Virus record (IMG/VR): IMGVR_UViG_2695420732_000010
Location: 1 to 6,976 of that record
From: a virus
Taxonomy: Duplodnaviria; Heunggongvirae; Uroviricota; Caudoviricetes
Direction: 5' to 3' (one strand)
Length of the DNA stretch: 6,976 bases
The notes under the pieces are model-generated. The model had not been told where the DNA came from. It saw only the letters and a list, made by a program, of their open reading frames with translations, and searched no databases. Position 1 is the stretch's first letter; every line of letters begins with the position of its first letter. Shown piece after piece: positions 5,892-6,976 of the stretch. A program made the position numbers and the translations under genes.

Positions 5892-6533
5892 TCAGTGAAC
5901 GGTATCGAGCAGCTTTAACAGCTCAGGGAATCGGGATTCGAAGAAATGCGGCTGCGTCTCGCGCGGATTTGCAGGACTGGTGATGTTCTTGCCGAACATG
6001 CAGCCTTTCGCCGTCAGCGACCAGAATTTTTTGATGTTGTTAATCGCGGTACGGCTGTATCGTTCGCGTTGTTCAACGATCCCCAGCTTCGCCATCTGGT
6101 GATATGCCTGATTAGCCGTCAGGCGGATACCATATTGCTTCAGCAGTGCACTCAGCGACAGCGTGGGGCGACTTGAGCCATCAGGCGCGTCAGCAGGAGC
6201 ATCAATGGCATAGCGCGGTGCCAGATTCGGTAAGCCAACAGCCTCCTGGAGTTTCTGACAGGCACCAAGCACAGATGAGTTAGACAGGTTTAACTCCCGA
6301 CGCATAAAGTCCAGCAGAATCACACCAGCCTGCATCTTGTCAGCAGCCTGCCCGGATAATTTTTCCGGTGCGCTGGTTACCATGTCGAAAGTACGGATCA
6401 CCTTCAGATGGAATGACGGGCTGATCCACATTGCATAGGCATACACCAGTTCCTTACAGACATACGTTCCCCGTTCATTTCCCCCATGAATCACACTCAC
6501 CGGGTCAACACCCAAATTCTGGGTGTTGGTCAA
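5892..6533 (-). CDS. KilA-N domain-type phage protein, probably 5'-truncated by the IS insertion
   Basis: GTYVCKELVYAYAMWISPSFHLKV at residues 23-46 resembles the C-terminal half of the KilA-N domain (GTWVHPDLAxxFAxWLSPEF). The track start is a TTG, and the frame stays open upstream through 6534-6571 and across the IS boundary at 6572, so the native N-terminus appears missing. Confidence 0.55.
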   Translation of the reverse strand: MTNTQNLGVDPVSVIHGGNERGTYVCKELVYAYAMWISPSFHLKVIRTFDMVTSAPEKLSGQAADKMQAGVILLDFMRRELNLSNSSVLGACQKLQEAVGLPNLAPRYAIDAPADAPDGSSRPTLSLSALLKQYGIRLTANQAYHQMAKLGIVEQRERYSRTAINNIKKFWSLTAKGCMFGKNITSPANPRETQPHFFESRFPELLKLLDTVH

Positions 6534-6571
6534 TTCATGAACAAGCTCAACAGTTTGTTGGCTGGAAAGAA

Positions 6572-6976
6572 TGAACCGCCCCGGGTTTCCTGGAGAGTAT
6601 TTTATCTGTGAACTCAGGCTGCCAGATCATTATTTCCGATGGAAGCATAATAAGCTTTTTCTGCTTCTGCCGGAGGAATATGGCCCAGCCTTTCCAGCAA
6701 TCGTCGATTGTTATACCAGTCCACCCACGTTAGTGTGGCCAGTTCCACTTCTGTCCGGTTTTTCCAGCTCTTACGGTGTATTACCTCCGCTTTGTAAAGA
6801 CCATTGATGCTCTCAGCCATCGCGTTGTCATACGAGTCGCCAGTACTCCCTGTTGATGCCAGTAATCCGGCTTCCTTAAGCCGCTGCGTGTAGGCCAGCG
6901 ATACATACTGAGAACCTTTATCACTGTGATGGATTGTGCCGGACGGCCGACGGGCCCACAACGCCTGCTCCAGTGC
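6572..6976 (-). mobile_element. IS3-family insertion sequence, IS629/IS1203-like, right end (partial; continues beyond window)
   Basis: Plus-strand 6572 onward reads TGAACCGCCCCGGGTTTCCTGGAGAG, matching the terminal inverted repeat I recall for IS629 (TGAACCGCCCCGGGAATCCTGGAGAC); the transposase stop lies 40 bp inside this end. Confidence 0.7.
6614..6976 (-). CDS. IS3-family transposase OrfB (DDE integrase core), C-terminal part; N-terminus beyond window end
   Basis: Frame open to the window edge. Translation ...ALEQALWARRPSGTIHHSDKGSQYVSLAYTQRLKEAGLLASTGSTGDSYDNAMAESINGLYKAEV...IGNNDLAA carries the second Asp (HSDKGSQY) and Glu (DNAMAES) blocks of the DDE triad. Confidence 0.85.
   Translation of the reverse strand, partial: ALEQALWARRPSGTIHHSDKGSQYVSLAYTQRLKEAGLLASTGSTGDSYDNAMAESINGLYKAEVIHRKSWKNRTEVELATLTWVDWYNNRRLLERLGHIPPAEAEKAYYASIGNNDLAA

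Follow-up and report, generated by a model that had tools for sequence, protein, structure and literature searches.

Does the short KilA-N reading frame near the right end of this phage DNA represent a gene in its native form, or the remains of a gene that was interrupted by an insertion sequence? The stretch that we analysed (hereafter the window) comprises 6,976 nucleotides of a Caudoviricetes record (IMG/VR IMGVR_UViG_2695420732_000010), and an original prediction, made from the letters alone, held that an IS629-like element had inserted into the 5' region of the KilA-N gene. We consider a simple, recent IS629 insertion that inactivated this gene to be the best explanation, with a probability of roughly 0.93. 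The features at issue, in window coordinates, are the following.

5892 to 6568, minus strand: 3' remnant of the KilA-N gene, codons 45-269 plus the stop codon (5892-5894); equals nt 134-810 of the gene in Escherichia coli RM8385 and RM8352
5892 to 6533, minus strand: mechanical 213-codon ORF with a TTG start at 6533; gene callers report the 213-aa product in strains FHI43 and FHI48
6569 to 6571, no strand assigned: right-hand copy of the target-site duplication, GAA on the plus strand and TTC on the minus strand; also nt 131-133 of the KilA-N gene
6572 to 6976, minus strand: IS629 segment inside the window, 405 bases out of 1310 bp, the remaining ~905 bp lying past 6976
6572 to 6596, minus strand: right terminal inverted repeat (IRR) of IS629, 22/25 identical to the left repeat and the same as the IRR of the BP-4795 IS629
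6614 to 6976, minus strand: 3' end of orfB of IS629, comprising its stop codon (6614-6616) and the 120 codons before it, cut by the window end

The sequence from 6572 onward is the right end of IS629

When window positions 5700-6976 were compared by megablast with 5426 complete E. coli genomes, prophage similarity ended exactly at 6571/6572. Hundreds of records of uninterrupted prophages matched query positions 1-872 (window 5700-6571) at 99.9-100% identity, and none of them continued beyond 6571. From 6572 onward the plus strand reads TGAACCGCCCCGGGTTTCCTGGAGAG..., and all 405 bases up to the window end are identical (405/405) to the right end of IS629 in phage BP-4795 (AJ556162.1, IS629 positions 906-1310). 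The terminal repeat therefore begins at 6572, where it had been predicted, and it is a true IS629 end. A minus-strand ORF at 6614-6961 encodes a transposase-like C-terminus and runs off the window; in this part of orfB we take HSDKGSQY and DNAMAES to carry the second Asp and the Glu, respectively, of the DDE catalytic motif.

As only the IRR and the last 120 codons of orfB fall inside the window, the remaining properties of the element were judged from E. coli "O103" ML775 (NZ_CP193495.1), which contains a complete IS629 of 1310 bp (L001 4873-6182). Its imperfect terminal repeats begin with TGAAC and end with GTTCA, and they align with 22 matches over 25 positions, as a run of 13 and a run of 9 separated by 3 mismatches. 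The element encodes a DDE transposase in two overlapping frames, OrfA of 108 aa and OrfB of 296 aa, which are joined by a programmed -1 frameshift; the NCBI annotation of ML775 records both the programmed frameshift and a frameshift pseudoknot in the IS3-family transposase, and the NCBIfam match to IS3 family transposases scores 311.9 bits (cut-off 160). Over its whole length the element is 98.9% identical to the BP-4795 copy annotated as IS629, in which ORF77/78 correspond to OrfA/OrfB, and its identity to copies from Stx2a phages of O157 is 97.5%. In practice ISfinder separates isoforms at about 95% identity.

In its length, frameshifted orfA/orfB, TGAAC... repeats and 97.5-98.9% identity to annotated copies, the element is the same as the IS629 (isoforms IS1203 and IS3411) of STEC prophages, and it is flanked on both sides by GAA/TTC in ML775, FHI43 and FHI48. 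IS629 subtypes are known to differ by 4-5%, to generate duplications of 3-4 bp and, in O157, to lie inside prophages in 62% of copies (PMC3271280). The label "IS629-like" is therefore correct. The transposase ORFs are intact, and the IS copies are identical in the three strains.

The insertion splits a 269-codon KilA-N gene

In its intact form the gene is 810 nt long and encodes a protein of 269 aa, as in O103 RM8385 and O121 RM8352 (WP_001061444.1). It occurs at a coverage of at least 80% in 2114 of the 5426 E. coli genomes, always annotated as a KilA-N domain protein. The 269-aa protein has 100% amino acid identity to a protein of phage Ayreon and 99.3% to orf50 of phage cdtI ("transcriptional regulator"), and PHROG 129 gives its family the same label, "transcriptional regulator". 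Residues 4-105 are 40% identical to P1 KilA, and the Pfam KilA-N model (PF04383, profile positions 5-105) covers residues 7-109 with 79.2 bits. The KilA-N domain is generally taken as DNA-binding. Behind it, a C-terminal module (about residues 97-269) recurs in other phages after Bro-N, antirepressor-type and other N-terminal domains, a modular architecture in which it is probably an independent domain. When the intact protein was compared by sequence with the Protein Data Bank, even the best match (E = 0.34) was not meaningful.

The original prediction had pointed to the sequence past 6976 as the place to find the other IS end, a target duplication and the upstream part of the gene, and all three are present in ML775 and in the FHI43 and FHI48 drafts. 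In ML775 the left copy of the duplication, GAA, lies at the far end of the IS (L001 6183-6185), with the same arrangement in FHI43 and FHI48, and the 5' gene fragment beyond the element is 133 nt (44 codons) long in each of these strains. Removal of the ML775 element together with one GAA yields the intact 810-nt gene with 0 mismatches over 810 nt. The break thus lies at codons 44/45 (the duplicated bases being nt 131-133), inside the KilA-N domain. An empty site is found in the orthologous prophage of O121 RM8352, which is 99.96% identical over window positions 1200-6571 (2 mismatches in 5372 nt) and has an intact gene. A chance resemblance is excluded by the recovery of an empty site alongside the target duplication and the two ends of the IS, and the interruption of the gene by an IS629-like element is borne out. 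It is directly supported by the identity of the IS and its two ends, by the duplication, by the exactness with which the gene is restored, by the empty site in the orthologous prophage and by how rare the junction is, and no observation speaks against the insertion. As both lie outside the analysed stretch, the left end of the IS and the 5' fragment of the gene are presumed, for the source of the window itself, to be as in ML775 and FHI48.

Our reading is that a 1310-bp IS629, oriented like the gene, inserted at codons 44/45 of the 810-nt gene, whose place is between rusA and Q in the early-right (nin) part of a lambdoid prophage. IS629 is a member of the IS3 family, in which transposition proceeds by copy-out-paste-in through a circular intermediate, and the event left a 3-bp target duplication. 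The insertion splits the N-terminal KilA-N domain and leaves the downstream piece, the one in the window, without its native start.

BstA was weighed as a candidate identity for the KilA-N protein because of its KilA-N-like domain (PMC8585504). We rejected this assignment, as the protein has no match to BstA in the PADLOC library, of which this release is assumed to contain a BstA model, and its locus lies between rusA and Q, not beside the repressor. Among the PADLOC defence-system models as a whole, the only hit was a weak 37-residue match to PDC-S22 (E 1.6e-05) within the KilA-N region, and none was convincing.

The remnant is a gene fragment with little prospect of translation

The remnant retains only the last ~40% of the KilA-N domain together with the entire C-terminal module. 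The 213-aa ORF still scores above the Pfam cut-off (45.2 bits against 23.8), with a match confined to its residues 12-53 and to positions 64-105 of the 107 in the profile. Positions up to about 63 are lost through the break at residue 44, and the domain is incomplete, the first 44 residues of the protein lying across the IS. The KilA-N motif does therefore sit unusually close to the N-terminus, as had been remarked. The phage KilA-N proteins (P1 KilA, cdtI orf50 and Ayreon) resemble the intact allele in having the full N-terminal domain, and the intact allele is 99-100% identical to proteins of viable lambdoid phages; unlike them, the window copy is without residues 1-44, which amount to the first ~60% of the domain profile. 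The window copy is a gene fragment and presumably not a functional member of the family. The upstream piece, outside the window, has a coding capacity of 44 native plus 9 IS-encoded residues, and the NCBI annotation of ML775 shows two KilA-N pseudogene pieces flanking the transposase, one incomplete and "missing N-terminus", the other "missing C-terminus".

We next consider whether the remnant is still expressed. Transcripts reading through from the IS629 transposase promoter or from the phage early promoter could, in principle, be translated with the TTG at 6533, or else an ATG further inside, as the start codon, to give mostly the C-terminal module, with a regulatory or dominant-negative activity either kept or gained. 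The arrangement has some features that would allow this. The IS and the gene are co-oriented, and a consensus scan, whose counts were at chance level, found no terminator-like hairpin on the minus strand within the IS or between the orfB stop and the remnant. The remnant frame also stays open from its stop at 5892 across the boundary, as predicted; it continues to 6626, the first upstream in-frame stop being at 6627-6629, and the 55 nt gained in this way are IS sequence. The C-terminal module, found with other N-terminal domains and so probably independent, could in principle act alone if an internal start were used.

Against this, the TTG at 6533 is the first start-like codon after the in-frame stop at 6627-6629, no ATG, GTG or TTG of the frame occurring before it, in agreement with the earlier remark that the start is only a TTG. 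No Shine-Dalgarno-like sequence was seen by eye upstream of this codon, which is preceded by GAGCTTGTTCATGAA. A translational fusion of orfB to the remnant was rejected, as the two frames are one base apart and the stop at 6627-6629 closes the remnant frame. At the right IS end the consensus scan, which covered the IS with its flanks and looked for promoters as well as terminators, found no outward promoter, with counts at the expectation from shuffled sequence, and the NCBI annotation treats the piece as a pseudogene. Read-through RNA into the remnant is therefore plausible, its translation is unlikely, and we regard an active remnant product as very improbable. As neither a native start codon nor a ribosome-binding site is available, we infer that the KilA-N gene disrupted by the IS629 insertion is a pseudogene, with loss of protein function and negligible expression of the remnant.

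A different reading takes the 213-aa ORF as the native, full-length gene and places the IS in intergenic DNA upstream, and gene callers do give exactly this product in several assemblies. The intact homologues, however, are 269 aa long and have a full KilA-N domain, and their start lies 56 residues before the TTG at 6533, which by this comparison is a mechanical ORF start and not the native one; moreover, the missing 44 codons were found across the IS in ML775, FHI43 and FHI48. IS-free scaffolds with the 213-aa ORF do exist, but they show it only through a run of N inside the gene. With the exact reconstitution of the gene, the domain coverage and the N-run artefact all against it, this reading is refuted, and we give it hardly any credence. 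Equally negligible is the reading of the junction as a mis-joined IS repeat or as a product of IS-mediated deletion or recombination between two IS copies: IS629 is multicopy, with about ten IS-end matches in the ML775 chromosome, and elements present in many copies are well known to cause misassembly and rearrangement, but the same left and right junctions occur in one complete genome and two independent drafts, the 3-bp duplication is perfect, removal of the IS and one copy restores the gene exactly, and both flanks are collinear with the RM8352 prophage.

The insertion is confined to a small lineage

Among the 5426 complete E. coli genomes, ML775 was the only one to match window positions 5700-6976 from end to end, and a 200-bp query centred on the junction reached more than 80% coverage in ML775 only. 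An exact 32-mer across the junction had 0 matches in IMG/VR viral contigs and 0 in JGI metagenome contigs. The window differs from ML775 at only two places, a substitution inside the Q gene (4125) and a single-base indel in an intergenic homopolymer (C7 versus C6, window ~498-504). A look-up of the 213-aa ORF in public assemblies identified the identical insertion, with the same 1310-bp IS and TTC duplication, in GCA_000951915 and GCA_000939755; a comparison of 4085 nt between the first of these and the window showed 100% identity. The assemblies belong to Norwegian clinical isolates, the first to FHI48, which came from a patient with haemolytic uraemic syndrome, and the second to FHI43; both isolates are of O121 and are Stx2a- and eae-positive (PMC6033998). 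Taken with the empty site in the related O121 strain RM8352, this makes the insertion a recent polymorphism within one prophage lineage.

The other 8 of the 10 places listed for the 213-aa ORF are ENA metagenome scaffolds without an IS. In these scaffolds (L006, L007 and L010-L015) an otherwise intact KilA-N gene contains, at positions ~2755-2850, a run of N whose flanks are duplicated. An excision scar or a naturally short allele was considered for them and rejected, as an N run with duplicated flanks is a scaffolding artefact. This artefact yields the same 213-aa ORF as the IS-disrupted strains and could mislead protein-cluster statistics. The 213-aa "KilA-N protein" reported by gene callers is itself a truncated artefact and is unsuitable as a representative of the family.

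As the event is recent and restricted to a lineage, it can serve as a strain marker. The junction (…GGCTGGAAAGAA|TGAACCGCCCCGG…) offers a specific target for PCR or in-silico typing, and it tags a small lineage that includes the US food isolate ML775 as well as the Norwegian clinical O121 isolates FHI43 and FHI48; the empty site is seen in O121 relatives such as RM8352. This use agrees with the suggestion that such insertions are employed as strain markers and with the literature on IS629 and IS-printing (PMC3271280).

Comparison with other IS629 insertions

The event is of an already known kind, a standard IS3-family insertion with gene disruption, and it is visible in public annotation. It adds nothing new on the biology of the IS or the phage, and its practical value, as a marker and as a caveat for annotation, is modest. 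The insertion resembles the O157:H7 IS629 copies used for IS-printing (PMC3271280) in its 3-bp duplication, its location in a prophage and its use as a polymorphic strain marker. It is unlike the catalogued O157:H7 sites in lying at codons 44/45 of a KilA-N gene, in a non-Stx lambdoid prophage, in a lineage labelled O121/O103, and in its rarity, with one carrier among 5426 complete genomes and two among drafts. In the IS629 literature that we encountered, which was not searched for this particular site, we met no mention of KilA-N codons 44/45.

A further parallel is the insertion of IS1203v in stx2 of O157:H7 and its precise excision promoted by IEE, which are among the matters described in a preprint (bioRxiv 10.1101/2023.06.07.543989). 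In both cases a prophage gene is inactivated through the simple insertion of an element of the IS629 type; there the gene is that of the toxin, stx2, and here it is a regulatory or accessory one. By analogy, the KilA-N gene could be restored by precise excision through the duplicated target bases.

A second IS629-like insertion in a homologous KilA-N gene was found in E. coli 720632 (NZ_CP025842.1, L003 2956-4265). It shares with the window the gene family, the position between rusA and DUF968/Q, the orientation of the IS and a 3-bp duplication. It differs in the duplicated bases (GCC), in the site (about codon 125), in the isoform, which is 94.9% identical, and in the host lineage, and it is an independent event. 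Such recurrence could hint at selection. Under that reading the insertion would be a selected step of domestication, by which a host-harming KilA-type gene was silenced or the downstream antiterminator Q was damped, or else it would have freed the C-terminal module as a stand-alone regulator through IS read-through. We consider this very unlikely, and two insertions among roughly 2300 gene-carrying genomes do not argue for selection.

Prophage context

The ML775 prophage begins with an integrase adjoining yjjG and continues as a lambdoid early region up to Q. Before Q it carries genes for Rha, HTH, PerC, Dam, LexA-like and RusA proteins, the split KilA-N gene, a gene of 171 codons and a DUF968/HNH gene; past Q it carries a low-GC insert of two genes, a DNA methylase gene, two tRNA genes, lysis genes and structural genes. 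The prophage has no stx. It bears other lesions (L004, NZ_CP193495.1 4490000-4514300), namely an ISCro1 of the IS66 family within a DUF6645 gene, portal and tail L genes with frameshifts, and an HK97-gp10-like gene that is truncated.

In O103 RM8385 (NZ_CP028112.1, L002 1-329), identical KilA-N, 171-aa and DUF968 genes occur in an Stx1a prophage with a different Q of 250 aa. The KilA-N/171-aa/DUF968 segment of the early region is thus common to distinct lambdoid prophages.

The low-GC insert occupies window positions 2529-3990 on the plus strand and consists of overlapping ORFs of 308 aa and 182 aa, with a GC content of 30.6% compared with 46.6% for the whole window. It runs on the strand opposite to the phage operon, between Q (4003-4359, minus strand) and the DNA methylase gene (852-1910, minus strand). 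The 308-aa and 182-aa products had no match in Pfam, NCBIfam or PADLOC. PHROG matches of the 308-aa protein were only to families of unknown function (best phrog_2802), and a 100% identical protein, annotated as hypothetical, is present in phages mEp460_4F5 and vB_EcoS-569R4. By eye, several hydrophobic stretches of the 182-aa product look membrane-spanning. The pair looks like acquired accessory genes, possibly with a role in defence or superinfection exclusion.

Downstream of Q and the methylase gene, the minus strand of the window carries a tRNA-Arg (anticodon TCT) and a tRNA with anticodon CAT, at 579-655 and 736-811; the latter is assigned to Met by ARAGORN and to Ile in the NCBI annotation. 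Placement of tRNA genes downstream of Q is typical of Stx-type lambdoid phages, and the prophage here is one without stx. At the left end of the window (1-409, minus strand) lies the 5' part of a TerB-family gene, which runs off the analysed stretch.
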